Assembly: GCA_001779925.1 (NCBI GenBank)
Contig: MFEK01000014.1
Span: 86,983 to 150,982, forward strand
Source of the DNA: Candidatus Doudnabacteria bacterium RIFCSPHIGHO2_01_FULL_46_14
Lineage (GTDB): Bacteria > Patescibacteriota > Doudnabacteria > UBA920 > 2-01-FULL-46-14
Direction of reading: 5' to 3'
Length of the DNA: 64,000 nucleotides
Shown here: piece by piece, positions 1 to 62,485 of the stretch
How the letters are laid out: the number at the start of each line of letters is the position of its first letter
Numbering within the stretch: position 1 is the first letter of the stretch
Program-made: the position numbers and the translations under genes
The notes under the pieces: generated by a model
Seen by the model: the letters and a program-made list of their open reading frames with translations, nothing else
Database searches by the model: none
What the model was told of the DNA's origin: nothing

Positions 1-1010
1 GGCAGCTCCGCGTTCAGGCTTATTCTGACGAAGCAATCGGCAAGGATATTATTACTGCCGATACGATTAAAGACCCTTCGGGATTGATCAAGTTGATCAA
101 AAAAACCATTACCCAGCCGAAATTCGGGCGAGTTACCACGCCCTATGTGATAGCTTCCATTCCTGAAACCAAATGTTTTGTGCGAGTCATCCAAATGGCT
201 GCGGTTTCCGCCGAAGAAGCCAAGGAAGCCATACCATGGGAGGCCGAAGCTTACATTCCCATTCCGATCGGTCAGGTCTATTTAGATTGGGTCATACTTT
301 CCGGCGATCCTAATCAAAAAGACAAAATGACTGTGCTGATTACTGCGGCGCCCAAGGATTACATTGACGACTACACCAGGATCTTAAAGGAAGCGTCCCT
401 GGAACCGGTAGCATTGGAGATTGAATCCCAGGCCACAGCGCGCAGTCTTGTCTCCAAGCTCGAAGAAACAGTGCTGATTTTGGACATCAATACCCTGCGG
501 ACCAGTTTTATTGTCTACGATCACAACACCCTGCAATTTACGTCTTCCGTGCCGATCGCGGGCAATGTTTTCACGGAAGGTGTAGCCAAGGCTTTGAATG
601 TCAGCACTGAGGAAGCAGAGAAAATAAAGCGCAGGGACGGGCTTGATGAAACGAAAAATGACGGCGCTGTAAAAAAAGCGCTTGCCCCGATTTTGAACAA
701 TCTTGTTTCAGAAATAAAAAACATTATTCGTTTCCACGAGGAACATGCCGCGGCCACGAGCAAGATTTCCCGGATTTTGCTTTCCGGAGGATCGAGCAAG
801 CTTAAGCACCTGCCTTCGGTCCTGTCGGAACGATTGTCCGGAAGCGATCTGTCTGACAGGGCGTTCCGGTCTTTGCCAGGGCTTAAAATAGAGCTTGGGA
901 ACCCTTGGGTAAAAGTCCTCGGCAAAAAACAAACTCCGCCCTTGTCGCGGGAAGATTCGCTTAGTTACGCCACAGCCATTGGTTTGGCGCTTCGGGGGTT
1001 TGAAGAATGA
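1..1010 (+). CDS. pilM: Type IV pilus assembly ATPase-like protein PilM (5' end outside window)
   Basis: Frame 3 is open from nt 3 with no upstream stop. Actin-like PilM motifs LDINTLRTSFIVYD and GNVFTEG. Followed by pilN and pilO. Confidence 0.8.
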   Translation, partial: QLRVQAYSDEAIGKDIITADTIKDPSGLIKLIKKTITQPKFGRVTTPYVIASIPETKCFVRVIQMAAVSAEEAKEAIPWEAEAYIPIPIGQVYLDWVILSGDPNQKDKMTVLITAAPKDYIDDYTRILKEASLEPVALEIESQATARSLVSKLEETVLILDINTLRTSFIVYDHNTLQFTSSVPIAGNVFTEGVAKALNVSTEEAEKIKRRDGLDETKNDGAVKKALAPILNNLVSEIKNIIRFHEEHAAATSKISRILLSGGSSKLKHLPSVLSERLSGSDLSDRAFRSLPGLKIELGNPWVKVLGKKQTPPLSREDSLSYATAIGLALRGFEE

Positions 1011-1011
1011 G

Positions 1012-1091
1012 CCCCGTTAGAAATTTGATCAAGAAAAATTAGACAAATAATTATGATAATACAAATTAACCTACAAGGATTTCTAACGGGG
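1012..1091. mobile_element. 80-bp MITE-like element with perfect 13-bp TIRs CCCCGTTAGAAAT / ATTTCTAACGGGG around a 54-bp AT-rich core, flanked by 4-bp direct repeat TGAG (1008-1011 and 1092-1095)
   Basis: TIRs and TSD read directly from the sequence. Removing the element restores a GAATGAGCGCT junction with pilM TGA overlapping pilN ATG. Confidence 0.65.
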
Positions 1092-1663
1092 TGAGCGCTG
1101 TCGCCGCAAAAAAACGGATCAACCTTCTGCCACCGGAGGAACAAAAAGAAGTAGCGCGTCTGGAAATAAACGCGGAAATTTTACATTTCGGCATAATTTT
1201 GACTGCAAGCTTGCTCGTCCTCGCCGCTGTTTTGTTCGGAGTGAATTTGTGGCTTGGCCGAACTGTGAGCAAGAATGACCAAGAGATCGCGAAATATTCG
1301 ACGCAACTCGAAGCGTATCAGGGGACGAGCTTGCAAAAAGAAGTCGCCGCGTTGAACGAAAACATTGAGAATTTCAAAATGCTTTCGGAGCAGAGCATGA
1401 AATGGTCGCCGTATTTAATGGAGCTGGCAACGCTCATTCCCAAGGACGTCAGTCTTGATTCCATACAGTTGAACCGGATTACGGGAAAGGTCGAGGTTAC
1501 CGGCCGGGCATCAAACCGCAATTCCGTTTTGGCCCTGCGCCAAAGAGTTCTCGATTCCAAGCATTTTAAGAATATCAATTTCCCCCTTTATAACCTGGAA
1601 ACAGCCCGAAACGTTAGCTGGAAATACCGTTTTTATTTGAGGATGGAAGAGGCGGAAGAATAA
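1091..1663 (+). CDS. pilN: Type IV pilus assembly protein PilN
   Basis: KKRINLLPPEE N-terminus, a single TM helix and position after pilM. The GTG start is created by the terminal G of the element plus the TSD. Confidence 0.7.
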   Translation: MSAVAAKKRINLLPPEEQKEVARLEINAEILHFGIILTASLLVLAAVLFGVNLWLGRTVSKNDQEIAKYSTQLEAYQGTSLQKEVAALNENIENFKMLSEQSMKWSPYLMELATLIPKDVSLDSIQLNRITGKVEVTGRASNRNSVLALRQRVLDSKHFKNINFPLYNLETARNVSWKYRFYLRMEEAEE

Positions 1664-2997: not shown

Positions 2998-4400
2998 TTA
3001 TTAGACCAGGTGATTTGCTGGTAGCCGGAATTGGATAAGGGGAAACTCGGCGGCGGAGAAAACAGCAGGTTGGTGTCATAGGTGGTGACTGTGTTTTGGA
3101 AACCCGAGACTACGGTTCCGCTGCCGTTGACCCAGCTCCATGTCCAAACCCCGAAGCTCATCAGCGAGCCATAGGTTGTTATTGTGGTTTTTATGTTGCT
3201 GGGGAAATAGAAACGCTGGACACTCCCATTTTGGGCAATCAGGGCCGCATCAATATTCAGGGTATTTGGAACATAATATGTGGCTAGCACATCCTTTTGC
3301 GCAAGGAGTCCGAGCGCGACTGTGCCGTCCTTGACTGTATATTGAATGTTGTTGGGGATGAGAATGCTTGGCGCAGTCGCGGGATTATAAGGCAGTAGCG
3401 CGGCCGCGACCATAACCCGACCGGAGACTGTACCCTCCACCCAGGTGCGGTCCTCGATAAACATTATGCCGTTTGCCGGGAGCGCGGGGGTGGAAAGCAA
3501 GGTTCTGGCGCCTCCGCCGGTGCCGTAGTCTAAATCCTCATTATGCGCCGCGCCATTCACATCCCAGCCAGTGGGGTGCGCTCGGAGGCTGTTGACCCGG
3601 TAAATACTTACCGTGTTATTGCTATTGAATACCAGGGAATATCCTTGGGCATTGGAAGGGGCGAGATAAATGCCGTTTGTCTGAGCATCGTTTTTCATGG
3701 TGGCCAGATTGGCTGTGATGGTTGTGAAATCCAGGTTTGGCACGGGGAATTGCCAGAAATTCTGGGTAGATTGCGGCGCTGCCCCCCAGATTCCCGGTTT
3801 GCTTTGCGCCGGGCTGCAGCCGTGATATGGCTGGCACATGTATGTGGTTTTGGCGGAAGTGATCGGCGCGTTGCCGGTCCCGTCAAAGCGGATGCCATTG
3901 TTGGAATGAAACTCGCCATTGACCGATTCCGTATCGCCGATCCAAACATCGCTGTTAGTCAGAAAAGAATATTTTGCCAGTGAGGGAATCCCGTATCTTG
4001 TAGTAACGGTTCTTTTAGTGTTGGGATTGGCGAGGGTATAGCCCGTGGATCTGATTGTGACCACAGTGGAGCCGATGAGGGGAGGGGTGATTGTCAAACT
4101 GAACTGGCCTATCACCGTGCCGGTGTCAGTATCAATATAGTCATGCACATAAGGTCCCGCGCCTCCGGTGCCATCCTGATAGTCTGTAGGATAGTGGGCC
4201 AGATGCCATTGGTAATAATTGATGCCAGCCTCCGAGATCTGCAGGGCTTGCTCGCGGTTTACAGAGGATCTGAGTCCGCCAAGCATCCGGTTTCCCACGG
4301 AAAGCACTGCCAGCAGGGTCATGGAGAAAATAAACATTACCACAACCTCGTAGATCAATATGTAGCCTTGTGAACGAGTGTGTCTCATATTAGTTGCCAA
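2994..4400 (-). CDS. Pilus-associated protein with degenerate prepilin-like N-terminus (PilX/PilY-like candidate)
   Basis: N-terminal SQGYILIYEVVVMFIFSMTLLAVL hydrophobic segment; translationally coupled to upstream minor pilins. Confidence 0.5.
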   Translation of the reverse strand: MATNMRHTRSQGYILIYEVVVMFIFSMTLLAVLSVGNRMLGGLRSSVNREQALQISEAGINYYQWHLAHYPTDYQDGTGGAGPYVHDYIDTDTGTVIGQFSLTITPPLIGSTVVTIRSTGYTLANPNTKRTVTTRYGIPSLAKYSFLTNSDVWIGDTESVNGEFHSNNGIRFDGTGNAPITSAKTTYMCQPYHGCSPAQSKPGIWGAAPQSTQNFWQFPVPNLDFTTITANLATMKNDAQTNGIYLAPSNAQGYSLVFNSNNTVSIYRVNSLRAHPTGWDVNGAAHNEDLDYGTGGGARTLLSTPALPANGIMFIEDRTWVEGTVSGRVMVAAALLPYNPATAPSILIPNNIQYTVKDGTVALGLLAQKDVLATYYVPNTLNIDAALIAQNGSVQRFYFPSNIKTTITTYGSLMSFGVWTWSWVNGSGTVVSGFQNTVTTYDTNLLFSPPPSFPLSNSGYQQITWSNN

Positions 4401-6845: not shown

Positions 6846-6997
6846 TTTTTGTTTCTACTGGATTTTTTCTTGAAAATATTATACCATAAAGCGAAGTATA
6901 TCACAAGGATTCGCGGCTCTCCGACCTGTGTCGGAGTCGGGTAAGGGTCGGAGAACGGCTCTAATCGGACAACAGATACCCGCCCGACTCGCCTGAC

Positions 6998-7072
6998 GGC
7001 CCTGTAGCTCAAAGGATAGAGCACTAGTCTTCGGAACTAGTGATGGGGGTTCAATTCCCTCCAGGGTCACCA
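6998..7072 (+). tRNA. tRNA-Arg (anticodon TCG)
   Basis: Manual cloverleaf: acceptor GGCCCTG/CAGGGTC, D arm GCTC..GAGC, anticodon stem CTAGT/ACTAG with loop CTTCGGA, T loop TTCAATT, CCA encoded. Confidence 0.8.
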
Positions 7073-7278
7073 TACGAGTCAGGCGGGCGGGTTTCAAAAC
7101 ATTGGGCTTCCGTTCTAAGTGGATAATCCTTTGGCTGAAAATTCCTGTTGGGCACATACGAATTTAATAACTGGGGCCCCCGAAAAAGCGCAGTTTTTTT
7201 GGGGAGAGCGGGACTCGAGCTTAGATTGCAGAGAACCGCTTTAACGATTCGCGAAAATCGTAGCCCTGAGTCACGCGA

Positions 7279-7605: not shown

Positions 7606-8670
7606 ATGATCAATTTTTTCTACGGCGAAGACACATTCACTCTGAGCCAGGAAATTACAAATTTAAAAGCAAGGTTTAAATTTGTGGAAACGCTGTCCAT
7701 CAACGGCGAATCAGATGTTCAGCTCAAAAATAAACTTCAGGACATCCTGCAAAGCCAAGGACTGTTTGTACAAAAAAAACTAGTAATTTTGAACAATTTT
7801 TTAACTGATGTAAAAGCCTATCCGCAGACTGAGGAGTATTTGCTTAAGGCTTTGAATAACTCGAACAGTGAGACTACGGTAGTGATTGCGCAGGAAGAAA
7901 AATTCGATCGCAGATTGAAATTTTTTAAAGCCTTGCAGAAAATAGCCCAGAATCGCGAATTCACTATCCCGGCGGGAAAAGATCTGGAAATTTGGATTAA
8001 GAGTTATTTGGGTCACCGGGGATTTGAAATCGAAAACAGTGGGCTTGTGGAATTAATTGCAAGATTGAGTGATGATGGTATTGACCCCGTTAGAAATAGC
8101 CCGTCCCAATGGGCATCTGGGCGTACTAGCACGGGCGAGATTGCTAACGGGACGAGTTTGTGGCAGGTCAGCTCGGAGTTGGAGAAATTGATGCTATTTC
8201 GATCCCCCCCCTCCCTCAGTCCCTCCCCACCAGGGGGAGGGAAGATTGCATTCGCTGACGTTCGCGATCTTGTGATGCCTAATATTTCCCAAAATGTGTT
8301 CCAGCTCACCAATCTATTCGCTGAAGGAAGAGGCCGTGAAGCTGTATCGCTTTTGGAAAAAATGATGAGCGCACCGCAGGCCTCGGATCTGAAATCTCAA
8401 ACCATTCAGATCATCGGGGGTCTGGCCTCCCAGATCCGAAGCTTGCTTTTGGTCAAGGATTTGGAAAGAGAGACACCTTCAAAGATTGCCGAGATTTTGA
8501 GTTGGAAAGAGGGACGAGTTTGGATAAACTCAAAGCTGGCCAAAAAATTCACAAAGGAAAAATTGCTTGGATTGATGCGCGACCTACGTGCGCTCGATTT
8601 ACGCTTGAAAACTTCGGAAGAACCGCCTAAACTGCTATTATCGCTATTCTTACAGAAAGCCAAAGTTTAA
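7606..8670 (+). CDS. holA: DNA polymerase III delta subunit-like protein carrying an in-frame repeat insertion
   Basis: N-terminal MINFFYGEDTF delta-subunit motif. A low-complexity insert (PVRNSPSQWASGRT..., PPSLSPSPPGGG) is encoded by the repeat elements at 8085-8245. Confidence 0.55.
   Translation: MINFFYGEDTFTLSQEITNLKARFKFVETLSINGESDVQLKNKLQDILQSQGLFVQKKLVILNNFLTDVKAYPQTEEYLLKALNNSNSETTVVIAQEEKFDRRLKFFKALQKIAQNREFTIPAGKDLEIWIKSYLGHRGFEIENSGLVELIARLSDDGIDPVRNSPSQWASGRTSTGEIANGTSLWQVSSELEKLMLFRSPPSLSPSPPGGGKIAFADVRDLVMPNISQNVFQLTNLFAEGRGREAVSLLEKMMSAPQASDLKSQTIQIIGGLASQIRSLLLVKDLERETPSKIAEILSWKEGRVWINSKLAKKFTKEKLLGLMRDLRALDLRLKTSEEPPKLLLSLFLQKAKV
8085..8151. mobile_element. Second copy of the CCCCGTTAGAAAT-TIR element family, inserted in frame inside holA
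   Basis: Shares the 20-mer TTAGAAATAGCCCGTCCCAA and further homology with the copy at 24369-24429. Imperfect TIR CCCCGTTAGAAAT / ATTGCTAACGGG. Confidence 0.5.
8201..8245. repeat. GC-rich hairpin repeat (TCCCTCCCC ACCA GGGGGAGGGA) of the CCCCTCC..GGAGGGG family, in frame in holA
   Basis: Family members at 10167-10199, 10576-10598 and 54241-54300. Confidence 0.45.
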
Positions 8671-9529: not shown

Positions 9530-10157
9530 GTACATCGACATAAGCTTGAGCCTCGACAATACTACGTTTCCCTGGCCGGGCGACACGAGATTTGTTCGCT
9601 TGGAGAAAAAAGGATCCGGAATAGTTTCCCAGCTAATCATGTCAACGCATACCGGTACTCACATTGACGCACCCAAGCATTTTTTGTTTGATAAATCCGG
9701 CGTTGATCAAATTCAGCTAGCGAAATTGATCGGACCGGCGCGAGTTATGGCGATAAATTCTGAAAAATTAATCACAGTAAAAGATATTCTGTCGGCCCAA
9801 GGCCGATCCGCCTCGGGCGGAAAAATCCAAAAAGCGGAACGGATCTTGTTTAAAACCAGAAATTCCAAACTTTATAAAAAAGGCAGATTCACGGCTGATT
9901 ATGTTTCGTTGTCCCTTGAGGGTGCCGAGTATCTGGCAAAAAAGAAAATCAGTCTCGTTGGCATAGATTATCTGGGCATTGAAGCCAAAAGCGCGCCCGG
10001 GCATCCGGTGCACAAGACACTGCTTGCAGCAGGCATTGTGAATCTGGAGGGACTAGATTTATCCAAGGTCAAACCAGGCAATTACAATCTCGCGGCATTG
10101 CCGCTGAAAATAAAAGCTGGAGATGGTTCACCGTGCAGGGCTATTTTGTGGCGTTAG
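9522..10157 (+). CDS. Cyclase-family protein (kynurenine formamidase-like)
   Basis: HTGTHIDAPKHF cyclase signature. Confidence 0.65.
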   Translation: MAKYIDISLSLDNTTFPWPGDTRFVRLEKKGSGIVSQLIMSTHTGTHIDAPKHFLFDKSGVDQIQLAKLIGPARVMAINSEKLITVKDILSAQGRSASGGKIQKAERILFKTRNSKLYKKGRFTADYVSLSLEGAEYLAKKKISLVGIDYLGIEAKSAPGHPVHKTLLAAGIVNLEGLDLSKVKPGNYNLAALPLKIKAGDGSPCRAILWR

Positions 10158-10552
10158 GAATCTTTTCCCCTCCTTAACAAGGAGGGGTTAGGGGAGGTCT
10201 TGATTGCAGTCTCTATCTCCTCAAGTACTGCCTCAAGATTTTTATAAATTTCCTGATTGGTGAATCGAAGAAACTTGATGCCAAAAGATTGAATATAAGC
10301 CTGCCTATCCTTGTCCAGTCTTGCCGAATTGTCGTCAAAATGTGAATCACCATCAATTTCAATGGCCAATTTCAGGAGCGGGCAATAAAAATCAACAATA
10401 TATTTGCCTACACTGTATTGTCTGCGAAATTTTACGCCGAGTACACTTTTGTTTTTAAGATGCCCCCACAGGATCCGTTCTGCCGGGGGCATATCTGTTC
10501 TTAATTTTTGTCTTTTGATTTTTTCTGATGTCTTATTGAAGGTTTTTGTCAT
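10154..10552 (-). CDS. DUF559 (Vsr-like PD-(D/E)xK) endonuclease-domain protein
   Basis: ERILWGHLKN...KFRRQYSVGKYIVDFYCP...LAIEIDGDSHF...FLRFTNQEI. The C-terminal 14 aa are encoded by the flanking hairpin repeat. Confidence 0.65.
   Translation of the reverse strand: MTKTFNKTSEKIKRQKLRTDMPPAERILWGHLKNKSVLGVKFRRQYSVGKYIVDFYCPLLKLAIEIDGDSHFDDNSARLDKDRQAYIQSFGIKFLRFTNQEIYKNLEAVLEEIETAIKTSPNPSLLRRGKDS
10167..10199. repeat. Hairpin CCCCTCCTTAACAAGGAGGGG followed by TTAGGGGAGGTC; left inverted-repeat boundary of the DUF559 unit
   Basis: AGGGGAGGTC (10190-10199) is the exact reverse complement of GACCTCCCCT (10576-10585). Confidence 0.55.
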
Positions 10553-10575
10553 TTTTTACCCCACCTGACCTCCCC

Positions 10576-10598
10576 TTGTAAAGGGGAGGAACAAAACA
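10576..10598. repeat. Hairpin CCTCCCCTTGTAAAGGGGAGG; right inverted-repeat boundary of the DUF559 unit
   Basis: Mirror of the left hairpin; same loop type TTAACAA / TTGTAAA. Confidence 0.55.
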
Positions 10599-13412: not shown

Positions 13413-13452
13413 CACAATAATTCGAATAAACGAGTCCCCGTAGTTCAACTTG

Positions 13453-13464
13453 CCCCGTTAGGCA
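13453..13464. repeat. Left arm CCCCGTTAGGCA of a perfect 12-bp inverted repeat; partner TGCCTAACGGGG at 13541-13552
   Basis: Shares the CCCCGTTAG core with the MITE TIRs at 1012, 8085 and 24369. Confidence 0.6.
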
Positions 13465-13466
13465 TT

Positions 13467-13538
13467 CTCCCCGTAGTTCAATGGATAGAACGGGAGCCTT
13501 CTAAGCTCTTGATGTAGGTTCGATTCCTACCGGGGGGA
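13467..13538 (+). tRNA. tRNA-Arg (anticodon TCT), inner intact copy, no CCA encoded
   Basis: Acceptor CTCCCCG/CGGGGGG, D arm GTTC..GAAC, anticodon stem GGAGC/GCTCT with loop CTTCTAA, T arm GTAGGTTCGATTCCTAC. Confidence 0.75.
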
Positions 13539-13659
13539 TGTGCCTAACGGGGTGAAGATAGAACACTGGTCTTCTAAGCCGGATATGTAGGTTTGATTCC
13601 TACCGGGGATACCAACGAGGCAGTAATTTGTAATTAGTACTTAGCCTATCCAAAATACT

Positions 13660-23736: not shown

Positions 23737-24279
23737 ATGTCGGTATTGAAACAAAAAATAAAATCAGGGTTTACTTTGATAGAGTTATTGGTGGTTATCG
23801 CCGTGATCGGTCTGCTGGCGAGCGTGATTTTGATTAGCTTGAACACCGCCCGGATCAAAGCCAGAGATAACCAGCGCAAGGCTACACTGAGGCAGCTAAA
23901 GACGGCTTTGGAACTCTATTTTGATGCTAATGGCAGTTACCCTGTAACTGTAGCCGGACCCTGGCCTTGGTGGTATTCGTCAGAGCCTGGTGACGCGGCA
24001 GCTAACGGCCCCGGCAACAACGGCGTGTGGATTTCAGGGCTGGTTCCTACCTATCTAGGATCTCTGCCGCGTGACCCACTCGGAGGAATCTCGCCTTACC
24101 CGGGTTGCGGCGGGACCTGGAAAAGATCGTACATATACACGAGTGATGCTACGAGTTATAAACTCGTCTCGCAGTGCTCTCCAGAAGGGGGGACAGTACT
24201 GTCCTCTGACGCTTTTTACGATCCGGTTCGCCCAGGTTATGCTTGGATGGTGTGTGCCGGCGTATCGTGTTCTTATTGA
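23737..24279 (+). CDS. Type IV pilin-like protein, array member 1
   Basis: Leader MSVLKQKIKSG then FTLIELLVVIAVIGLLASVILISLNTARIKARD; Cys pair near the C-terminus. Confidence 0.65.
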   Translation: MSVLKQKIKSGFTLIELLVVIAVIGLLASVILISLNTARIKARDNQRKATLRQLKTALELYFDANGSYPVTVAGPWPWWYSSEPGDAAANGPGNNGVWISGLVPTYLGSLPRDPLGGISPYPGCGGTWKRSYIYTSDATSYKLVSQCSPEGGTVLSSDAFYDPVRPGYAWMVCAGVSCSY

Positions 24280-24368
24280 AAGATATAGATTTGAGATCTA
24301 AAATCCAGTATTCTCGCTCATGGCAAGCAATGATGTAGCCTTACAAAGCAGGGGGAGGCTTTACCCTC

Positions 24369-24429
24369 TTAGAAATAGCCCGTCCCAAAGGCTCTTTGGG
24401 CGCACAAAAGCGCGGGCGCAATTTCAAAT
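24369..24429. mobile_element. 61-bp member of the CCCCGTTAGAAAT element family inserted at the pilin GFTL-coding site, flanked by 12-bp direct repeat GGCTTTACCCTC (24357-24368 and 24431-24442)
   Basis: Shares the 20-mer TTAGAAATAGCCCGTCCCAA with the holA copy. Direct repeats read from the sequence. Confidence 0.6.
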
Positions 24430-24904
24430 GGGCTTTACCCTCATCGAACTCCTCGTGGTCATCTCCGTCATCGGGCTTTTGGCCAGCGTGATTATGGTGG
24501 CTTTGAATTCAGCAAGAGTAAAAGCACGGGACATTAAAAGAATGTCCGATATAGGACAATTGCAGACGGCTTTGGAACTTTATTACGATAAATACAGTAT
24601 TTATCCGAACATCTCTCAATCCGCTGATTCTACCAATTGCGAAGATCGCACGCCGGCCCTAGTTTTTTATTTGGGTGAATTCATGTCATCTATTCCCCAC
24701 GACCCACAAGGTCCGCCCGCTGTTCCAAATGTTGATGCCGGTCCCGATCGCCATTGTTATTTTTATAATGTAAAAAAGAGCGGCCAGGGTTATGTAATTA
24801 TGGCTTACCAGGTCGAGCAGGTAACGACGGCTGCAAAAGGTGAAGGAGCGGCGTGTTATCCGGATGTGGTAAACGTTTATTGTAAAGGAATCAATTACCA
24901 ATAA
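24428..24904 (+). CDS. Type IV pilin-like protein, array member 2 (alternative upstream start 24320 reads through the inserted element)
   Basis: MGFTLIELLVVISVIGLLASVIMVALNSARVKARD; the ATG lies at the element/target junction. Confidence 0.55.
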   Translation: MGFTLIELLVVISVIGLLASVIMVALNSARVKARDIKRMSDIGQLQTALELYYDKYSIYPNISQSADSTNCEDRTPALVFYLGEFMSSIPHDPQGPPAVPNVDAGPDRHCYFYNVKKSGQGYVIMAYQVEQVTTAAKGEGAACYPDVVNVYCKGINYQ

Positions 24905-24905
24905 T

Positions 24906-25481
24906 ATGGATAATAAAAAGAATTTACAGGCCAATTCAGGCTTTATCCCCACACCACAACGCCGTTTGGTGTGGGGCTTTACCCTTATCGAACTTCTTGT
25001 GGTCATATCCGTGATCGGGTTGTTGGCGAGCGTGGTTATAATTTCCCTGAATTCATCAAGGATCAAAACCAGAGACACGGTGAGAAAACAAACTTTAAAG
25101 CAGCTGCAAAAGGCTTTGGAACTGTATTTTGACGCCAACGGCAATTATCCAATAGTGTCGCCTTACTATTCTTCAGAACCAGGAGACGTATGGCCTAACG
25201 GATCCGGCGGCAATGGCGACTGGATTCCCGGACTATCGCCGAATTATGTTTCCAAGCTGCCTCGCGACCCTCTTGGCGGCGCTTCCACGAATCCGGTTTG
25301 CACCCCAGGAGGTTATAAACGAGCTTATTATTACCGAAGCCTGGATGGCAAAGAGTACAAGCTTTATTCTCACTGTGGTCCCGAAGGTTCAGTAAATTCC
25401 GATGATCCTTTTTATGATCCGTCCCGGCCAACCTGGGCCTGGATGGTCTGCTCCGGCGAACCGGCGTGTTCAACGTGGTAA
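24906..25481 (+). CDS. Type IV pilin-like protein, array member 3, with a hairpin insertion in its leader
   Basis: Leader ...ANSGFIPTPQRRLVWG then FTLIELLVVISVIGLL. The insert CCCCACACCACAACGCCGTTTGGTGTGGGG (24947-24976) lies between GGCTTTATC and GGCTTTACCC. Confidence 0.6.
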   Translation: MDNKKNLQANSGFIPTPQRRLVWGFTLIELLVVISVIGLLASVVIISLNSSRIKTRDTVRKQTLKQLQKALELYFDANGNYPIVSPYYSSEPGDVWPNGSGGNGDWIPGLSPNYVSKLPRDPLGGASTNPVCTPGGYKRAYYYRSLDGKEYKLYSHCGPEGSVNSDDPFYDPSRPTWAWMVCSGEPACSTW

Positions 25482-25516
25482 AATAAAGTAAACATTTGAC
25501 AATTAACATTTAACAA

Positions 25517-26044
25517 TTGACAAAGAGCGCACAAATCAAAAGTCAAGGCTTTACCCTCATTGAGCTCCTCGTGGTCATTTCCCTCATCGGCTTGCTCGCG
25601 AGCGTGATTTTGGTCAGTTTAAATTCGTCGCGCGTTAAGGCCAGGGACACGGTGAGGAAGCAAACCCTTAGGCAGCTGCAAAAGGGTTTAGAATTTTACT
25701 ACAATCAAATTGGAAGTTATCCGGTAACTCCAGTTAACTGCTGCTCTTCGGAACCTGGCGACCCTTGGCATCCCCAGGATGACTGGATTCCCGGTTTGGA
25801 GCCTAGCTATATTTCTAAATTGCCTAGGGATCCTTTGGGTGGAATTTCGCCAATTTGCGCAGGACCCAGATATAGAAGTTATTTGTACCAAAGCGACAGC
25901 GACGGTAAAAACTATAAACTTTATGCTTATTGCAGTCCGGAAGGCGCTATGACTGACGACCCGTCCGATCCCTTTTACAGCCCAGGGGCTTGGTGGTATA
26001 CCTGGAGGGTCTGCGGCGGCACATCGGACTGCAATTCATGGTGA
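25517..26044 (+). CDS. Type IV pilin-like protein, array member 4
   Basis: TTG start; MTKSAQIKSQG then FTLIELLVVISLIGLLASVILVSLNSSRVKARD. Confidence 0.6.
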   Translation: MTKSAQIKSQGFTLIELLVVISLIGLLASVILVSLNSSRVKARDTVRKQTLRQLQKGLEFYYNQIGSYPVTPVNCCSSEPGDPWHPQDDWIPGLEPSYISKLPRDPLGGISPICAGPRYRSYLYQSDSDGKNYKLYAYCSPEGAMTDDPSDPFYSPGAWWYTWRVCGGTSDCNSW

Positions 26045-26055
26045 TAAATAGACTT

Positions 26056-26592
26056 ATGGAAAAAAACCAAAAAGCCTTTACCCTCATCGAACTCCTCGTC
26101 GTCATCGCCGTCATCGGTTTGCTGGCCAGCGTGGTTTTGGTGGCGATGAATAATTCACGGGCCAAGGCAAGGGATGCCAAACGGATCGCTGAAAAAAAAC
26201 AGGCGGTTACGGCGTTTAATTTATATTACAATGATAACGGCAAGTGGCCGCTAACCGTTTCTTCCTTTACACCCTCATCGAATTGTTTGGCGTCAAGTTC
26301 GGAAACTTGCTGGCTTGGCTCCAGAACAGGATTAGATTCACTTGTTAGCGCCCTTTCGCCGTATTTATCTTCTCTTCCGACAAACAATGTGCCAAGCGGT
26401 GTCCGGGCGTATAATCGGTTATTATATACAGACAATGCAAATGCCGGCGATATTGTCGCAGGCAGTCCCGCCGGAGCGTGGCTCATTTGGGTTCAGGAAA
26501 CCGGCATGACACCGGACAAGTGCGCAAGCAATATTATTTCAAACTATAGCGACGGCTATTTGTATTGCTATGAATTTTTGGGTCCGCCTTAG
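26056..26592 (+). CDS. Type IV pilin-like protein, array member 5 (Ala at the -1 cleavage position)
   Basis: MEKNQKA then FTLIELLVVIAVIGLLASVVLVAMNNSRAKARD. The upstream ORF extension to 25990 overlaps the previous gene and is unlikely. Confidence 0.55.
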   Translation: MEKNQKAFTLIELLVVIAVIGLLASVVLVAMNNSRAKARDAKRIAEKKQAVTAFNLYYNDNGKWPLTVSSFTPSSNCLASSSETCWLGSRTGLDSLVSALSPYLSSLPTNNVPSGVRAYNRLLYTDNANAGDIVAGSPAGAWLIWVQETGMTPDKCASNIISNYSDGYLYCYEFLGPP

Positions 26593-26623
26593 AAATATAT
26601 TTTGTATATTATAAAATAATTTT

Positions 26624-27262
26624 ATGAAGCGAAAAGGCTTTACCCTCATCAAGCTCCCCAGCTCTTCGTCCGCCTCTGGCGGACTACGGCGGGCCAATGC
26701 TTTCACATTGATAGAACTCCTCGTGGTCATTTCCGTCATCGGCCTGCTCGCCAGTATAGTTTTGGTGAGTTTGAACAGCGCGCGGGCCAAGGCAAGGGAT
26801 GCCAAGCGCTTAACCGACTTAGCCCAAATTAAGAAAGCTCTGGAATTGTATTATGACGATAACGGCAGTTATCCTAACACTAATTACAATGTCGGACCCG
26901 GGCAGTGGCGCACCCAATGCGCTTCCTCGGATTCATGGGTTACGCCAAACCTGCCGGCTGACCAGGTGATTAAAGATATTTATAATGGCAAAGGACTGGC
27001 TCCAACTTATATTAGCCCCTTCCCTTCCGACCCCCTCTTGAACGCAGCTTCGAGTCAAAATTGTTATAATTATACTTCCAATGGGACTGACTACAAGTTA
27101 ATAGATACAGCTTTAACAGATATGACCCTTGCCCAAATCAACCAGTATCCAAGCTATAAAGACCCTGCCAGAAACGACACAACCAATACAGCCCCGTGCA
27201 CCTCATTTGCTGATTATTCACTGACTTTGGCCATTTGGTCTCCTGGGGCGCAGTGCTGGTAA
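26624..27262 (+). CDS. Type IV pilin-like protein, array member 6, with a hairpin-repeat insertion in its leader
   Basis: MKRKGFTLIKLPSSSSASGGLRRANA then FTLIELLVVISVIGLL. The insert (26664-26693) has the GTCCGCCTCTGGCGGAC hairpin between GCTTTACCCTCATC and GCTTTCACATTGAT. Confidence 0.6.
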   Translation: MKRKGFTLIKLPSSSSASGGLRRANAFTLIELLVVISVIGLLASIVLVSLNSARAKARDAKRLTDLAQIKKALELYYDDNGSYPNTNYNVGPGQWRTQCASSDSWVTPNLPADQVIKDIYNGKGLAPTYISPFPSDPLLNAASSQNCYNYTSNGTDYKLIDTALTDMTLAQINQYPSYKDPARNDTTNTAPCTSFADYSLTLAIWSPGAQCW

Positions 27263-27278
27263 TTTTTTATTAAATTTT

Positions 27279-27755
27279 ATGAAGCGAAAAGGCTTTACCC
27301 TAGTTGAACTCCTCGTGGTCATCGCCGTGATTGGGCTTTTGGCCAGCGTGATTTTGGTGAGTTTGAACAGCGCGCGTGTGAAAGCCAGAGATGCTAGACG
27401 AAAAGCGGACATGTATCAATTGGGACTGGCAATACAGCTTTACTATGACGCTAACGGCACATTCCCGCCCAGCGTTTTAGATACAATTGACAACACAACA
27501 ACAAAAACCGGAGATTGGCCGCCTGCCTTTAAGACGGAGCTTGCCCCTTTTTTGTCCAAGCTTCCCCTGGACCCACTTTCAAATAGCGCTTTCCCTTTTT
27601 ACGGAGCAGAGAGGATGAATCGGGCTCCGGATGCGAATTGTAATGGGCAATTTGTCATCTGGATGTATTTTGAAGGAACGACTGATCCTGATTATGGTAA
27701 ATATATTTGCGGTTGGGCGCCGCTCCATTATATTAAGTTATTAGGCAAGTATTAA
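27279..27755 (+). CDS. Type IV pilin-like protein, array member 7
   Basis: MKRKG then FTLVELLVVIAVIGLLASVILVSLNSARVKARD. Confidence 0.65.
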   Translation: MKRKGFTLVELLVVIAVIGLLASVILVSLNSARVKARDARRKADMYQLGLAIQLYYDANGTFPPSVLDTIDNTTTKTGDWPPAFKTELAPFLSKLPLDPLSNSAFPFYGAERMNRAPDANCNGQFVIWMYFEGTTDPDYGKYICGWAPLHYIKLLGKY

Positions 27756-27767
27756 CTGCCCGAATAA

Positions 27768-28280
27768 ATGAAACAAAAAGGCTTAACCTTTACCCTTCGA
27801 CTACGCTCAGGGTTCACCCTCATCGAACTCCTCGTGGTTATTTCCGTCATCGGCCTGCTGGCGAGCGTGATTCTTATTTCTTTGAACAGCGCGCGGGCCA
27901 AGGCAAGGGATGCCAAACGCATCGCTGATATTCGGCAAATTCAAAAAGCTTTGGAACTCTACTATGATCAAAATAATGAATATCCGCGTTATGACGGCGG
28001 GGGAATAGTGACTTGCGGTGGTGCTTGGGCAACTACGGATGACGCGCCCACATTTATGCCCTGCTGGAATGATTTGCAAACAAAATTATCCCCGTATATA
28101 AATAGATTGCCGGTTGAAATTCTTTGGACATCCAGCGGTTATCATTATAAAACTCAAAACAGCGGACAAGGTTATTATTTGTTAATGTATCCTGAAAATA
28201 ACTCGATGTATCGGACTGATTCGCCTTGTTATGATAGTCAAGGTTCTCTTTGGTGGTGTACAGGGAATAATTGGGAATAA
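27768..28280 (+). CDS. Type IV pilin-like protein, array member 8, with a short leader insertion
   Basis: MKQKGLTFTLRLRSG then FTLIELLVVISVIGLL; duplicated GGCTTAACCTTTACCCTT / GGGTTCACCCTC. Confidence 0.6.
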   Translation: MKQKGLTFTLRLRSGFTLIELLVVISVIGLLASVILISLNSARAKARDAKRIADIRQIQKALELYYDQNNEYPRYDGGGIVTCGGAWATTDDAPTFMPCWNDLQTKLSPYINRLPVEILWTSSGYHYKTQNSGQGYYLLMYPENNSMYRTDSPCYDSQGSLWWCTGNNWE

Positions 28281-28301
28281 GGTAAGAAAAAATTAATAGA
28301 A

Positions 28302-28856
28302 ATGAGACCTCCACAAATACAAATCAAATATTCTTCTAAAGGCTTTACCCTCATCGAACTCCTGGTCGTTATTTCCGTTATCGGTCTGCTTGCTAGTGTG
28401 GTTATGATTGCTCTGAATTCCGCCCGTTTAAAGGCCAGGAACACCAAACGGCTTGCTGACATCAGGCAGTTGACCACAGCATTCAATCTTGGCCTTGATA
28501 GCAGCAGTAGCGGTTCCCTGCCTGCAAGCGGAGGTAATAATTGGGTATGCGTCAGCGCCAGTTGCTATGGGTCATGGGCGACAAGCTACCCCGCTAACGC
28601 TGGTGTTGATGCTTTTTTGGCGCCATATATTGCCAGCAAACCAACAGCTCCGCTTGGCAGTTATGCGGGAGCGGGCGGATATTTGTATATTTTTGGCTAC
28701 AACGGGGGGGCTGTGTCCCCGTATGACGGCAGTATTCTCGCAGGCACGTATTTGGACGCCCTCATGGAACCGCCTCTCACCCCAGGTATTTGCGGTTCAG
28801 GCAGAATATGGGACGCCACCTCAAACTACATTGAGTGCATGTTTAAGCTTGATTAA
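28302..28856 (+). CDS. Type IV pilin-like protein, array member 9
   Basis: MRPPQIQIKYSSKG then FTLIELLVVISVIGLLASVVMIALNSARLKARN. Confidence 0.65.
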   Translation: MRPPQIQIKYSSKGFTLIELLVVISVIGLLASVVMIALNSARLKARNTKRLADIRQLTTAFNLGLDSSSSGSLPASGGNNWVCVSASCYGSWATSYPANAGVDAFLAPYIASKPTAPLGSYAGAGGYLYIFGYNGGAVSPYDGSILAGTYLDALMEPPLTPGICGSGRIWDATSNYIECMFKLD

Positions 28857-29378
28857 ATGAAACAAAAAGGGTTTACCCTCATTGAACTCCTCGTGGTCAT
28901 TGCCGTCATCGGCTTGCTCGCCAGCGTGGTTTTGATGGCTTTGAATGCGACTCGAGTCAAAGCGAGGAATAGCAGGAGAGCTGCGGATATTCAACAGCTG
29001 GTTAAGGCTTTTAACTTAGCTGCCGATGCCGACGGCGGCACATTTCCCACTACTGGAATTAATCAATATTTTTGTATAAGCAGTACTTGCAGCGGCATAT
29101 GGCCTACCAACCCCAATGTTATAGTTGATAGCGCTTTGGCTCCCTATATAAAAAAGCCGACCGATCCCGTAGATTCTACCAGAGCCGGCGGGGGCTACAT
29201 TTATAACAGCAACTGGCCTTCCGGCAATGTTAGCCCCTATGACGGCACTGCCTGGGTAGGGGGTGTTTATTTGGCTTACTTATTGGAACCCGTTTCCATT
29301 ATCTCGGGCGTATGCGCACCGGGAAAAATTTGGATGGTTGACCAGACTTACATTGAGTGTTTGTTAAAGCTTGATTGA
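28857..29378 (+). CDS. Type IV pilin-like protein, array member 10
   Basis: MKQKG then FTLIELLVVIAVIGLLASVVLMALNATRVKARN. C-terminal region similar to member 9 (...YIECMFKLD versus YIECLLKLD). Confidence 0.65.
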   Translation: MKQKGFTLIELLVVIAVIGLLASVVLMALNATRVKARNSRRAADIQQLVKAFNLAADADGGTFPTTGINQYFCISSTCSGIWPTNPNVIVDSALAPYIKKPTDPVDSTRAGGGYIYNSNWPSGNVSPYDGTAWVGGVYLAYLLEPVSIISGVCAPGKIWMVDQTYIECLLKLD

Positions 29379-29868
29379 AAAAACCATGAAATCTAAATAT
29401 AAATTATCAACCGGTTTTACTTTAATCGAACTCCTCGTGGTCATCGCTGTTATCGGGCTTTTGGCGAGCGTGATTATGGTGAGTTTAAATAGTGCCAAGG
29501 CCAAGGCGCGGGATACTAAACGTAAAGCGGATTTAAAACAGGTCGCAACTGCCTTAAATCTTTATTATGACGAAAATAACTTTTTACCGGGAAATGCGTC
29601 CGGTTGGTGCTCTCTTTTTATCCACGGGGCCACTGGCTTTACGGGCAACGCCATGCCAGCTCCGCTTCTGACTAAGTACATGTCAAGCATTCCTTACGAC
29701 CCTATATGGGCTGGGGACGGGAACCCAAACAGCTACACGGCAGACTATCTGTATTATAATGTTGACAACACGAATGGTAAGTTTACTCTTTGCGCTAACT
29801 TTGAACAGGACCCGGGCAGTCTAACTGTCACGTGCGGCACTAATTATAAGTATTGCATAAGCCAATAA
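29371..29868 (+). CDS. Type IV pilin-like protein, array member 11
   Basis: MIEKTMKSKYKLSTG then FTLIELLVVIAVIGLLASVIMVSLNSAKAKARD. Confidence 0.65.
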   Translation: MIEKTMKSKYKLSTGFTLIELLVVIAVIGLLASVIMVSLNSAKAKARDTKRKADLKQVATALNLYYDENNFLPGNASGWCSLFIHGATGFTGNAMPAPLLTKYMSSIPYDPIWAGDGNPNSYTADYLYYNVDNTNGKFTLCANFEQDPGSLTVTCGTNYKYCISQ

Positions 29869-29906
29869 TTTTAAAAGGGCAAAAAATTTTAAAGTATAAT
29901 AAATTG

Positions 29907-30425
29907 ATGAACAAAATCAGACTTCAAACTGGCTTTACCTCCATCCCTCGGCCTTGTTCGTTCTTCGACAGGCTCAGAACGGCCTTGGGCTTGCCGAAAC
30001 GGTCGGGATTTACATTAATCGAACTCCTCGTGGTCATCGCTGTTATCGGGCTTTTGGCGAGCGTGATTATGGTGAGTTTAAATAGTGCCAGGGCCAAGGC
30101 GAGGGACGCGAGAAGAAAAGCGGATACAAAACAGTTGGGCACTGCTTTGGAACTATTTTACGATGCCAATAATTATTACCCTTACACGGGTTTGCCGGAT
30201 GGAAACAGCGCCGCAATGAGCTATTTAACGACTTATCTAACTCCGGCTTACCTGGCAAAAATCCCTGATGATCCTACCTGCCCGACGGTTTGCTATTCTT
30301 ACGTCCAGCTCGGAAGCGGCAAAGATTACGCGCTTTACGTGCCTCTGCAAGACAACCAAAATCCTTGCGTCATCAGGACTCCGGGCGCAACAGCTGTTTG
30401 GGCAGGTGTTCCTGGCTGTAACTAA
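29907..30425 (+). CDS. Type IV pilin-like protein, array member 12, with a ~62-bp insertion in its leader
   Basis: MNKIRLQTGFTSIPRPCSFFDRLRTALGLPKRSG then FTLIELLVVIAVIGLL. The insert (29953-30014) lies between GGCTTTACCTCC and GGGATTTACATTAATC. Confidence 0.55.
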   Translation: MNKIRLQTGFTSIPRPCSFFDRLRTALGLPKRSGFTLIELLVVIAVIGLLASVIMVSLNSARAKARDARRKADTKQLGTALELFYDANNYYPYTGLPDGNSAAMSYLTTYLTPAYLAKIPDDPTCPTVCYSYVQLGSGKDYALYVPLQDNQNPCVIRTPGATAVWAGVPGCN

Positions 30426-37750: not shown

Positions 37751-38725
37751 TTATTTTCTAAAACGCCCGTGAAACTTGGCGTGGATTTCTTTTAATCTTT
37801 TATTGGTTAAATGCGTATAGATTTGCGTAGTCGTGATGGATGCGTGTCCCAGGATTTCCTGGACTGACCTGAGGTCTGCGCCGGCCTGCAGGAGATCCGT
37901 GGCCATTGTATGCCTGAGTGTATGCGGGGAAATTTTTATAGTAATCCCTGCCAGCAGAGCGTATTTTTTCATAAGGCGCTGGATCGTGCGAGCGGTGAGC
38001 GGTGAAACATCCGAGATGTCAATTTTATTATTTGAATGTCTTACGAAAAGGGCAGGGGAGTTATCCGATCTTTTGCTGAGATAATTTTTGAGCGCGCTGC
38101 GGGCAGCTGGCGACAAAAATACAACACGGATTTTATCGCCTTTCCCTTTGACTGAGAACTCGTCTTTTTTCAGGTTGACCTGTGCGCGTTTCAGGCCCGC
38201 GCATTCAGCAACGCGAAGGCCGGTGGAAAATAAAATCTCGAGAATCGCGCGGTCGCGCAAGCGCCGAAGTTCGTCTTTTTCCTGGTTGGTTGCGCGGAAG
38301 AGTTTTTCCAAATCCTCGGATTCAAGAAAGCTTACCTGCCTTGACGGCGTTTTTGGAAGTTCCAGTTTTTCGGCGGCAAGGCTTTTGACGTCGCGTCGGG
38401 CTAAATATTTGAGGAAAGAGCGAAGAGCAATAATGTGGTAGGTTTGCGTGGCGAGTTTCAGTTCTCCGCCTTCGTCCGCCTGAGGCGGACTTCGGCGGAC
38501 TTGTCGGCGATTCAATGCGAGGCGAAAGCTTCTTACCAAATCCAAATCAACGCCAGCAGGGGATGATACTCTTCGAGATTCCGCAAATTCGCAAAATCGC
38601 CGTAAATATAAATCATAATTGCGGATGGTCAGGCGAGAGCGGTTTTTTTCCACCTCTAGGTGCTCTAGGAATTGCTGTTTGTATTTTTTTAGTTCCGTTT
38701 GTTTCATATTGTGCGACGTACACAA
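37751..38725 (-). CDS. xerC: Tyrosine recombinase XerC/XerD-like carrying an in-frame hairpin-repeat insertion
   Basis: C-terminal HTLRHTMATDLLQAGADLRSVQEILGHASITTTQIYTHL with catalytic Tyr. Extra RRQVRRSPPQADEGGE segment encoded by the repeat at 38467-38500. Confidence 0.7.
   Translation of the reverse strand: MCTSHNMKQTELKKYKQQFLEHLEVEKNRSRLTIRNYDLYLRRFCEFAESRRVSSPAGVDLDLVRSFRLALNRRQVRRSPPQADEGGELKLATQTYHIIALRSFLKYLARRDVKSLAAEKLELPKTPSRQVSFLESEDLEKLFRATNQEKDELRRLRDRAILEILFSTGLRVAECAGLKRAQVNLKKDEFSVKGKGDKIRVVFLSPAARSALKNYLSKRSDNSPALFVRHSNNKIDISDVSPLTARTIQRLMKKYALLAGITIKISPHTLRHTMATDLLQAGADLRSVQEILGHASITTTQIYTHLTNKRLKEIHAKFHGRFRK
38467..38500. repeat. Hairpin repeat CCGCCTTCGTCCGCCTGAGGCGGACTTCGGCGGAC, homologous to 26664-26693
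   Basis: CTTCGTCCGCCTNNGGCGGACTNCGGCGG shared with the pilin-leader copy. Confidence 0.55.
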
Positions 38726-56600: not shown

Positions 56601-57624
56601 AACAATTCAAGCTTATCTCAAAGAGCATGGCCAAGATGCTTTTTTAGTGCTGACAAAAATAAACCGTCAGTATATTTCCGGGTTCACCGGATCCATGGGC
56701 GCGGTTTTGATAACAAAAAAATCTGCAGAATTGTATGTGGACGACCGGTACACGATCCGGGCCAAGTGTGAGTCGAATTTGAAAGTTTACTCCCTTTCCT
56801 CCCTTTCGTTGAAAGGAAAAGTAGCGGTTGAAGATCATATCTCGGTTCGCGAATTCGCCAGTCTGAAGAAGAATCATAAACGCGCTAAATGGAAGATAAC
56901 TTCCAATGTGGTGGAGAATCTACGGGCGGTGAAAAGCGCGGGAGAGATCAGGGAAATAAGGAAAGCAAGTAGAATCGTTGATCTCTGTTTTTCGCGGATT
57001 CATAAATTTGTGAAGGTTGGCATCACTGAGATGCAGATTGCCCAGGAATTGGAAAGAACCGCAATCAAAAACGGCGCGGATGGCATGGCATTTGAATCCA
57101 TTGTGGCGTGGGGGGCCAATGCGGCTGCGCCGCACCACCTTTCAGGAAAGCAAAAAATCGGCCGGGACAATTTTTTGCTTTTGGATTTCGGCGTGCTGGT
57201 AAATGGCTATCATTCTGATTTCACACGCACGTTTTTCATTGGGAGGCCAAATAAAAAACAGGAGAAAATTTATAATACGGTTTTGGAGGCTCAGGTCAGG
57301 GGCATTGAAAAAGTACAGCCAGAAAATCCGGCCGCATTAGTTGATACGGCTGCTCGCCGCCATATCGAGCGGGCAGGATTTGGGAAATACTTTACCCACA
57401 ACACGGGGCATGGCGTGGGTCTGGAAATACACGAATTACCAAACTTTTCAGCTAAATCCGGCGATGTTTTGCGCGCAGGCATGGTTGTCACAGTCGAGCC
57501 GGGTATATATATTGAGGGCTGGGGCGGGGTCAGGATAGAGGATATGGTGCTCGTCAGCGATGGCGGACCTATTATCCTGTCAAAAAGCCCCAAGGACTTA
57601 GAATCAATGATTGTTAGAGTTTAA
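56581..57624 (+). CDS. M24 family Xaa-Pro aminopeptidase
   Basis: Pita-bread fold metal ligands HHLSGK...DFGVLVNGYHSD...HGVGLEIHE...EPG. Confidence 0.75.
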   Translation: MPASSIKTIQAYLKEHGQDAFLVLTKINRQYISGFTGSMGAVLITKKSAELYVDDRYTIRAKCESNLKVYSLSSLSLKGKVAVEDHISVREFASLKKNHKRAKWKITSNVVENLRAVKSAGEIREIRKASRIVDLCFSRIHKFVKVGITEMQIAQELERTAIKNGADGMAFESIVAWGANAAAPHHLSGKQKIGRDNFLLLDFGVLVNGYHSDFTRTFFIGRPNKKQEKIYNTVLEAQVRGIEKVQPENPAALVDTAARRHIERAGFGKYFTHNTGHGVGLEIHELPNFSAKSGDVLRAGMVVTVEPGIYIEGWGGVRIEDMVLVSDGGPIILSKSPKDLESMIVRV

Positions 57625-57715
57625 TGCAAAATGTAAATATCAAAATCAAAATGAAAATTAAAAATTTTAAAATTTTACATTGTCATTTTACATTTTGATT
57701 TTTTAATTTTGAATT

Positions 57716-62402: not shown

Positions 62403-62451
62403 TTTCACACCACAGTATAAAACTAAAACAAAAGAGGCGAATAAAATTCAT

Positions 62452-62485
62452 TTCCAAAATCAATACATTTGTATGTATTTTGGAA
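62452..62485. promoter_or_regulatory. 34-bp palindrome TTCCAAAATCAATACATTTGTATGTATTTTGGAA; second copy at 63203-63237
   Basis: Two nested inverted repeats read directly. Lies 15 bp upstream of the probable start (62500) of the PaaX-like gene. Confidence 0.5.

Follow-up and report, generated by a model that had tools for sequence, protein, structure and literature searches.

We observed that short hairpin repeats lie in frame inside three unrelated genes of a 64,000-nucleotide stretch of DNA (the window) from Candidatus Doudnabacteria bacterium RIFCSPHIGHO2_01_FULL_46_14, an organism with a tiny genome from Rifle aquifer groundwater (contig MFEK01000014.1, locus tags A2751_). The host genes are holA (product OGE78184), tgt (product OGE78226) and a xerC/xerD-like tyrosine recombinase gene (Table 1). 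We consider it probable that the repeats belong to several families of small, non-coding, palindromic elements resembling MITEs (miniature transposable elements with inverted repeats), which inserted into genes and are translated there as disordered loops. A first-pass annotation of the sequence had reported palindromic repeats in these genes. Its gene identities agree with Pfam and PDB matches, each repeat sequence it claimed was found at, or adjoining, the place it named, and the three open reading frames (ORFs) are, as it said, uninterrupted. Its description of the genes as essential holds for holA; model bacteria conserve tgt and xerC but can do without them.

A repeat search of the window independently recovered three pairs of copies: holA with a pilin gene (8081-8126 vs 24360-24405, 80% identical), xerC with a pilin gene (26664-26692 vs 38470-38498, 90% identical, 26/29 nt) and a DUF559 gene with tgt (10160-10197 vs 54266-54303, 76% identical). 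The degenerate pattern of each pair matched exactly twice in the window, against 0.00 expected from 100 shuffles. In addition, CCCGTTAG was found 6 times, as three inverted pairs, where 1.26 occurrences are expected, and GC-rich perfect stems of at least 8 bp numbered 49 compared to 19.5 in shuffled sequence, a 2.5-fold excess. Further copies of the hairpins occur in the window as well as in hundreds of other genomes. The first-pass annotation had said that the repeats also lie between genes; the second xerC hairpin copy, though, is not intergenic but codes for part of a pilin leader.

Orthologue alignments showed that the extra segments of HolA, Tgt and XerC are missing in the closest relatives, which marks them as lineage-specific inserts. 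Both checks put forward in the first-pass annotation, orthologue alignment and a search for further hairpin copies, thus favour its reading. In holA, both the palindrome and the hairpin that had been described were found, the former as a 68-nt element of what we term family A and the latter as a family-B unit in which CCCTCCCC pairs with GGGGAGGG. The family-A element is missing in all 30 HolA orthologues aligned, and among HolA and these Doudnabacteria-like orthologues PVRNSPSQWASGRTSTGEIANGT is unique to the window protein. The family-B site is a hotspot: other P/S/G-rich segments occupy it in six lineages (P0004, P0009, P0011/12, P0015, P0021 and P0051), and P0009 carries the same family-B unit at the same site as the window, plus nested DNA. 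An AlphaFold model of HolA has a mean predicted local distance difference test score (pLDDT) of 85.8, and its only low-confidence coils, residues 157-182 and ~200-212, are the two inserts, both located between regular secondary-structure elements (helices or strands); pLDDT is below 50 in residues 157-182, the family-A insert.

Two near-identical holA genes of another Doudnabacterium, P0014 and P0015 (loci L006 and L007), are identical in their flanking DNA save for 111 nt in P0015/L007. The empty site reads ...GATGC TTTAC GGCG... and the filled site reads ...GATGC TTTA[CCCCGCACCA...TGGTGCGGGG]TTTAC GGCG.... The 111-nt element, a member of family D, has 10-bp terminal inverted repeats, is bounded by a TTTA duplication and adds 37 in-frame codons. 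This clean pair of filled and empty sites shows directly that the elements are mobile. The hotspot comes after L-M-L-(Y/F/L), and in P0014 the codons CTT TAC (L-Y) hold the TTTA target.

Nine contigs encode the identical HolA protein, inserts included, and the five places shown for them are five different ENA, JGI and Logan samples, so the inserts are no assembly artefact. It is hardly credible that the segments are ancestral low-complexity linkers or artefacts of assembly: their low complexity alone would speak for this, whereas the closest orthologues lack them, only scattered lineages have them, and the independent assemblies agree.

For tgt, the first-pass annotation had described two GC hairpins and a match to a repeat flanking the DUF559 gene. 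Both hairpin units were found, over a somewhat wider extent (54222-54304) than the proposed 54241-54300, and it is the right-hand unit that matches the repeat, which lies at the 3' end of DUF559. The insert is 83 nt long, and the outward tails of its two units pair as an outer stem. The ~28-residue PFPNPSPQGRGINTDSSILRREDKGGGG is absent from the closest Tgt homologues listed (P0087-P0091, 77-94% identical) and also from the DNA of P0088, while at least 11 more distant Tgt relatives carry unrelated inserts at the same turn; a second Tgt insert hotspot lies after SLGEK. Compared with Z. mobilis TGT, PFPNPSPQGRGINTDSSILRREDKGGGG replaces a 4-residue turn between residues 286 and 291, and in the Tgt model, used for secondary-structure context alone, the insert (residues 310-338, pLDDT <50) falls between beta strands 303-307 and 340-344. 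In the xerC-like gene the hairpin lies where it had been reported. Its seven residues are lacking in 24 XerC orthologues, including P0207 at 88% identity. A comparison of the insert borders in tgt and xerC with the DNA of relatives gave no readable target duplication, because the flanks have diverged. Inserts of another flavour, ...SLRGNPKQSNSEIAA...ARNDR..., were seen in Tgt P0092, P0094, P0103, P0112 and P0113 and in XerC P0259; this points to further hairpin families in other Doudnabacteria proteins.

The open frames suggest that the inserts are translated, with NSPSQWASGR, SPPSLSPSPPGGGK and SPFPNPSPQGR as predicted insert-derived peptides. Inserts would survive where they keep the frame by adding a multiple of three nucleotides, introduce no stop and fall in a surface loop, and the survivors would simply be translated as disordered P/S/G/R-rich loops. 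Their strong hairpins would also suit removal at the RNA level, as with an intron, or bypass by the ribosome, as with the GC-rich hairpin 'byps' in the mitochondria of some yeasts. We regard either as very improbable: every intragenic copy seen stays in frame and stop-free, which would be needless if the insert were removed, no insert matches any Rfam ribozyme or intron family, and the frame used by family A avoids both the TAG/TAA of the element itself and stops formed from the target duplication. Inteins, self-splicing introns and ribozymes were rejected as well, the inserts being 7-37 codons long and giving nothing above threshold in Rfam. At the gathering threshold, Rfam returned tRNAs only; a match to Deinococcus Y RNA was sub-threshold noise (27.9 bits vs a cut-off of 80), due to a tRNA inside a long stem.

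Four copies of family A lie in the window (Table 1). The copy between pilM and pilN is pristine. In the relative L257 this junction (4015-4030) is an ATGA stop/start overlap with no spacer, and in the window (1008-1095) it reads TGAG[80-nt family-A element]TGAG, with the GTG start of pilN formed using the last G of the element. A second copy interrupts a tRNA-Arg(TCT)-like gene at its D-loop (13435-13615). This outer gene gives only a sub-threshold tRNA match (24.7 bits), and the tRNA-Arg(TCT) enclosed by the repeat is complete and high-scoring. None of 16 other long family-A elements has a tRNA as cargo. A different tRNA gene, tRNA-Arg(TCG) at 6918-7085, sits within an 8-bp inverted repeat, CGCCTGAC/GTCAGGCG, and has overlapping GC hairpins before it.

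A scan with CCCGTTAGNNAT-N(30-60)-ATNNCTAACGGG, taking one genome per species, placed family A at at least 120 loci in many Patescibacteria classes, Planctomycetota, Omnitrophota, Bacteroidales, Cloacimonadota, Nitrospirota, Elusimicrobia and others; by a rough estimate, ~17 exact matches would be due to chance. Phages were considered as vectors; a search of viral contigs found family A on 5 only. In 122 copies, the flanks at -5..-2 and +2..+5 are identical in 71-80%, compared to 7-39% in other registers, and the outermost base pair of the element is Y..R, complementary in 89%. T is the first base of the duplicated 4-mer in 71-76% of these copies, and A the last in 80-81%. The duplication is perfect in 61 of the 107 copies that have at least 300 nt of flank, most commonly as TGAA, TTCA, TTGA, TTTA, TAAA or TCAA. 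Families A and D both duplicate a 4-bp T-N-N-A target (TTTA for family D in L007), and their terminal inverted repeats, 12-13 bp in family A and 10 bp in family D, start with (C/T)CCC; family A has CCC...GGG tips. Elements derived from IS200/IS605 insert 3' of a fixed tetra- or pentanucleotide, duplicate no target and lack terminal inverted repeats. Insertion of this type 3' of TTAC, a candidate prompted by GGCTTTAC in pilin genes, is ruled out by the variable 4-bp duplications and the terminal inverted repeats.

Family-A copies abut the start codon of a long ORF in 34 of the 107 cases, and the ATG or GTG is rebuilt from the last base of the element (A or G) and the duplicated TG. The AT-rich cores (L008-L127) contain an internal partial end motif followed by a TATAAT-like box, and in some cases also a short ORF in frame, which suggests that elements with such boxes at start codons may act as a mobile promoter or leader. 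Long ORFs read through 10 of the 107 copies, and in all 10 the element length plus 4 is divisible by 3. Nine of them use the frame CCC GTT AGA AAT...ATT TCT AAC GGG (PVRN...ISNG), as does holA, because one of the other frames holds TAG/TAA and the remaining open frame tends to make stops from duplicated TGAA or TAAA. The GC-rich core of the holA copy recurs in six other genomes, several of them from named groups of the Candidate Phyla Radiation (CPR), and in this small sample keeps a conserved three-way fold with a few compensatory changes.

These observations bear on the alternative that the elements owe their retention to a role at their site, as promoter, translational coupler, terminator or protein-binding site, and are not just tolerated selfish DNA. 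The abutted start codons, the TATAAT-like boxes, the B units that flank DUF559 genes and the structural conservation of the GC-rich core would all fit such a role. Against it, the copies within genes occupy disordered loops, at positions particular to a lineage, in proteins unrelated to one another, the hotspots hold unrelated sequences, and the closest relatives manage without the elements; we therefore think it unlikely.

A family-B unit is a hairpin, CCCCTCC(n)...(n)GGAGGGG, followed by a tail, TTAGGGG(T/A)GG, whose length tracks that of the arms. Such units were found on at least 120 metagenome contigs of low to high GC content (L132-L251); they occur singly, in inverted doublets or bracketing DUF559 genes in inverted orientation. 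ORFs read through 37 of 111 B units in metagenome contigs, a count that we did not use owing to spurious long ORFs in high-GC contigs. In the window, a DUF559 gene is bracketed by two units whose tails both point toward the gene, and the TSPNPSLLRRG encoded by the 3' unit lies beyond the nuclease domain aligned with PDB 3hrl. The same inverted bracketing was seen for ~9 of 10 DUF559 genes next to family-B units in other contigs. The 722 kb surrounding family-B units contain 12 DUF559 ORFs, and the 930 kb surrounding family-A elements contain none. DUF559 is absent from the syntenic position of L257, between the cyclase and 6PGD genes. In its place, that spacer (~8530-8660 of L257) contains another long palindrome, CCAGCACCTTCC...GGAAGGTGCTGG, which encloses two hairpins. 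The G-strand of the B unit (GGGGAGGGG TTA GGGG T GGGG; 10165-10197, 54271-54303 and L132-L251) has four G-tracts and could form a G-quadruplex that competes with the hairpin.

To our knowledge, DUF559 is a large family with no established function. The clade of Vsr-like PD-(D/E)XK nucleases to which it belongs also contains a group I intron homing endonuclease (PMC3424549). Because the layout parallels that of repetitive extragenic palindromic (REP) units around genes for REP-associated tyrosine transposases (RAYTs), we propose that the DUF559 nuclease and B units would form one selfish system. As a tentative extension, DUF559 nucleases may be the partners of cross-phylum B units, in a system like REP/RAYT with a different nuclease class, from which solo units and doublets seed new protein loops; in parallel, a cross-phylum MITE with piggyBac-like ends may survive preferentially on start codons that it rebuilds.

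Twelve tandem type IV pilin paralogues lie at 23737-30425, and the leaders of 5 of the 12 are lengthened by extra DNA between the first GF(T) and the real GFTLIELL. The family-D hairpin among these inserts is 30 nt long and, with two extra bases, adds 36 nt and keeps the frame. In the established type IV pilin pathway, the prepilin peptidase cleaves the real motif between G and F (G|FTLIELL). The leader inserts would thus be harmless, because everything upstream of that motif is cleaved off and the peptidase would discard them with the leader. Insertion recurs in pilin leaders and at one HolA site because the codons GGC-TTT-ACC (G-F-T) and CTT-TAC (L-Y) hold the T-N-N-A target. Gene callers differ on the starts of the pilins (one pilin is 158 aa or 194 aa).

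Several points weigh against mobile, translated elements as the explanation throughout. Translation of the inserts is predicted from their open frames, and the number of family-A copies read through in frame is subject to ascertainment bias. The mean pLDDT of the Tgt model is only 58.7. The family-A copies in holA and around the tRNA lack matching 4-bp flanks (TTGA/CGAG and CTTG/TGAA, respectively). Neither in the window nor in the 930 kb that flank family-A copies did we find a transposase or a full-length autonomous element with ends of this family; pairs of family-A ends 0.3-4 kb apart, considered as full-length elements, enclose ordinary genes only in these 930 kb. The association of DUF559 with B units is a correlation of position. 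No terminal repeats with duplication were found at the examined sites of family B, family C or the 30-nt insert that sets P0012 apart from P0011. Family C, the xerC/pilin hairpin, consists of two TCCGCC/GGCGGA stems, and is repeated and lineage-specific with no clear ends or duplication; relative to P0207, the xerC change is a net gain of 21 nt with altered flanking bases, which template switching could also give.

Template switching or slippage at quasi-palindromes, followed by homogenisation through gene conversion, might have made the short hairpins, above all family C and the 21-30-nt inserts, locally, with no transposition. The bases next to the xerC hairpin changed so that a perfect palindrome results, and, like the P0012 insert, B units have no terminal repeats with target duplication. 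Yet the 29-nt sequence is shared by two unrelated genes 11.8 kb apart, B units of the same sequence occur on contigs from low to high GC, and in families A and D the duplications are clean and a filled site has an empty counterpart. We consider local origin rather unlikely overall, and a live alternative for family C and the small hairpins.

Table 1. Host genes and repeat elements in the window (a dot marks features without a strand)
Feature	Position	Strand	Evidence
holA (DNA polymerase III delta subunit), host of two inserts	7606..8670	+	Pfam DNA_pol3_delta and DNA_pol3_delta_C; orthologue alignment
Family-A palindromic element in holA, GC-rich double-hairpin subtype; encodes PVRNSPSQWASGRTSTGEIANG	8085..8152	.	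Ends CCCCGTTAGAAAT/ATTGCTAACGGGA
Family-B unit in holA (site 2), C-rich tail and hairpin TCCCTCCCC/GGGGAGGGA; encodes SPPSLSPSPPGGG	8203..8242	.	Sequence and fold
tgt (queuine tRNA-ribosyltransferase), host gene	53966..55234	-	Pfam TGT, E = 5e-133; PDB alignment
Inverted doublet of family-B units in tgt, tails outward; encodes PFPNPSPQGRGINTDSSILRREDKGGGG	54222..54304	.	Fold and sequence; match to 10165-10197
xerC/xerD-like tyrosine recombinase, host gene	37751..38725	-	Pfam Phage_integrase and SAM-like N-terminal domain; PDB XerD alignment
Family-C hairpin (TCCGCC TTCG TCCGCC tga GGCGGA CTTC GGCGGA) in xerC-like gene, net 21-nt insert	38465..38499	.	Pattern match; alignments
Pristine family-A element between pilM and pilN, 13-bp perfect ends, AT-rich core, TGAG on both sides	1012..1091	.	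Inverted repeat and flanks
Family-A-type inverted repeat CCCCGTTAGGCA/TGCCTAACGGGG around intact tRNA-Arg(TCT)	13453..13552	.	Inverted repeat; tRNA search
DUF559 (Vsr-like PD-(D/E)XK endonuclease) gene, bracketed by family-B units	10154..10552	-	Pfam DUF559; PDB 3hrl, E = 4e-17, residues 21-115
Family-B unit at 3' end of DUF559 gene; encodes C-terminal TSPNPSLLRRG	10165..10197	.	Repeat and pattern match
Family-B-like unit (CCTCCCC/GGGGAGG hairpin and tail) just upstream of DUF559 start, inverted relative to 3' unit	10558..10589	.	Stem search
Degenerate family-A element, holA-like GC-rich subtype, in leader of pilin 24320-24904; TTTA/TTTA flanks	24364..24433	.	Repeat match
Family-D hairpin CCCCACACCA...TGGTGTGGGG in leader of pilin 24906-25481	24947..24976	.	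Inverted repeat shared with 111-nt HolA element
Family-C hairpin-containing insert in leader of pilin 26624-27262, between first GFTLI and real AFTLIELL	26651..26698	.	Hairpin pattern match
Extra sequence LTFTLRLRS in leader of pilin 27768-28280 (approximate extent)	27783..27809	.	Pilin leader comparison
Extra sequence between GFT and GFTLIELL in leader of pilin 29853-30425 (approximate extent)	29940..30005	.	Pilin leader comparison

Elsewhere in the window, long AT-rich palindromes lie at 57622-57716, 62447-62490 and 63200-63240; the latter two are 85% identical copies that flank the ORF 62377-63189. A 1922-aa ORF (39358-45126) has an internal duplication at a distance of ~1.8 kb (42602-42769 vs 44402-44569, 85% identical).

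Mobile DNA is usually said to be scarce in the ultra-small, reduced genomes of the CPR. The genomes studied here are peppered with tiny mobile hairpins that enter core genes. As the first-pass annotation had supposed, no earlier report for CPR/Patescibacteria was found in the searchable literature, itself incomplete; on such elements or MITEs in this group, on Doudnabacteria and on a link between DUF559 and repeats, it likewise gave nothing relevant. The elements account for many of the length differences among CPR proteins and for many of their lineage-specific low-complexity loops rich in P, S and G, and these loops can mislead alignment, phylogeny, gene calling (as for the starts of the pilins and of pilN) and structure prediction. 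They also give two leads: a cross-phylum, start-codon-rebuilding MITE with piggyBac-like ends, and a hairpin family physically tied to DUF559 genes.

Among known systems, the GC clusters of yeast mitochondria, including the byps that the ribosome bypasses, are likewise GC-rich mobile hairpins that land in protein-coding genes of an AT-richer genome. They differ in being mitochondrial, and the byps are bypassed and not translated. Family B resembles REP/REPIN-RAYT systems in its short imperfect palindromes, which are solo or in inverted doublets, and in the inverted brackets around a small nuclease gene. In contrast to REP/RAYT, the bracketed gene encodes a DUF559 Vsr-like PD-(D/E)XK nuclease, not a Y1 HUH transposase, and the unit has a G-rich tail and no GTAG head, is not confined to intergenic DNA and is common to very distant phyla.

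The IS1380 family of insertion sequences has CC ends and 4-5-bp duplications (ISfinder). The ends of piggyBac begin CCCTAGAAAGATA, its TTAA target is duplicated and its excision is footprint-free (PMC5861402); it has been paired with IS1380-like prokaryotic elements (PMC5718144). Family A reads CCCGTTAGAAAT, compared to CCCTAGAAAGATA in piggyBac, and shares with it the CCC...GGG ends and a 4-bp duplication with T first and A fourth. Its target is a degenerate TNNA and not strict TTAA, and the short resemblance of the ends may be coincidental. Families A and D would be moved by a cut-and-paste DDE transposase of piggyBac/IS1380 type acting in trans. No candidate protein for such a DDE/DDD transposase was found in the window or the family-A loci, so the link is drawn from the resemblance of ends and target only.

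Families A and D share with bacterial MITEs such as Correia, ERIC, RUP, Nezha and others (reviewed in PMC10969869) their terminal inverted repeats, short target duplication, small size, lack of an ORF, high copy number and occasional in-frame fusions. Polymorphism of presence and absence was found both between L006 and L007 and at the pilM/pilN junction relative to L257. Family C has no terminal inverted repeats and family B is asymmetric. In contrast to other MITEs, no parent insertion sequence was found (930 kb and window), the 12-13-bp ends are conserved across phyla with unrelated interiors, and about one third of family-A copies sit exactly on a start codon that the element rebuilds. Judged by their repeats and duplications, families A and D have the hallmarks of MITEs moved by a DDE cut-and-paste transposase, showing every MITE feature considered save a parent element.

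The first-pass annotation had drawn an analogy with the Rickettsia palindromic elements (RPEs). RPEs are not known to end in CCCCGTTAGAAAT or CCCCTCC. In the summary that PMC10969869 gives of Ogata et al. (2000, 2002), RPEs are ~100-150 bp palindromic repeats of about ten families, mainly in Rickettsia, that are translated inside housekeeping proteins of a reduced genome. The elements described here are likewise palindromic and non-autonomous, occur in a reduced genome, lie in frame in unrelated housekeeping genes as well as in intergenic copies, and would form extra surface segments compatible with the protein fold. They differ from RPEs in size (21-111 nt), host (Doudnabacteria) and ends, in that at least two families span many phyla, and in their clear T-N-N-A target duplications. 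The analogy thus stands for behaviour, namely tolerated insertion in frame, and not for family membership: the elements are RPE-like and, by host, size and ends, not members of the RPE family. Since hairpins have entered CPR core genes as they have in Rickettsia, in-frame palindromic colonisation looks recurrent in small genomes and not a Rickettsia curiosity.

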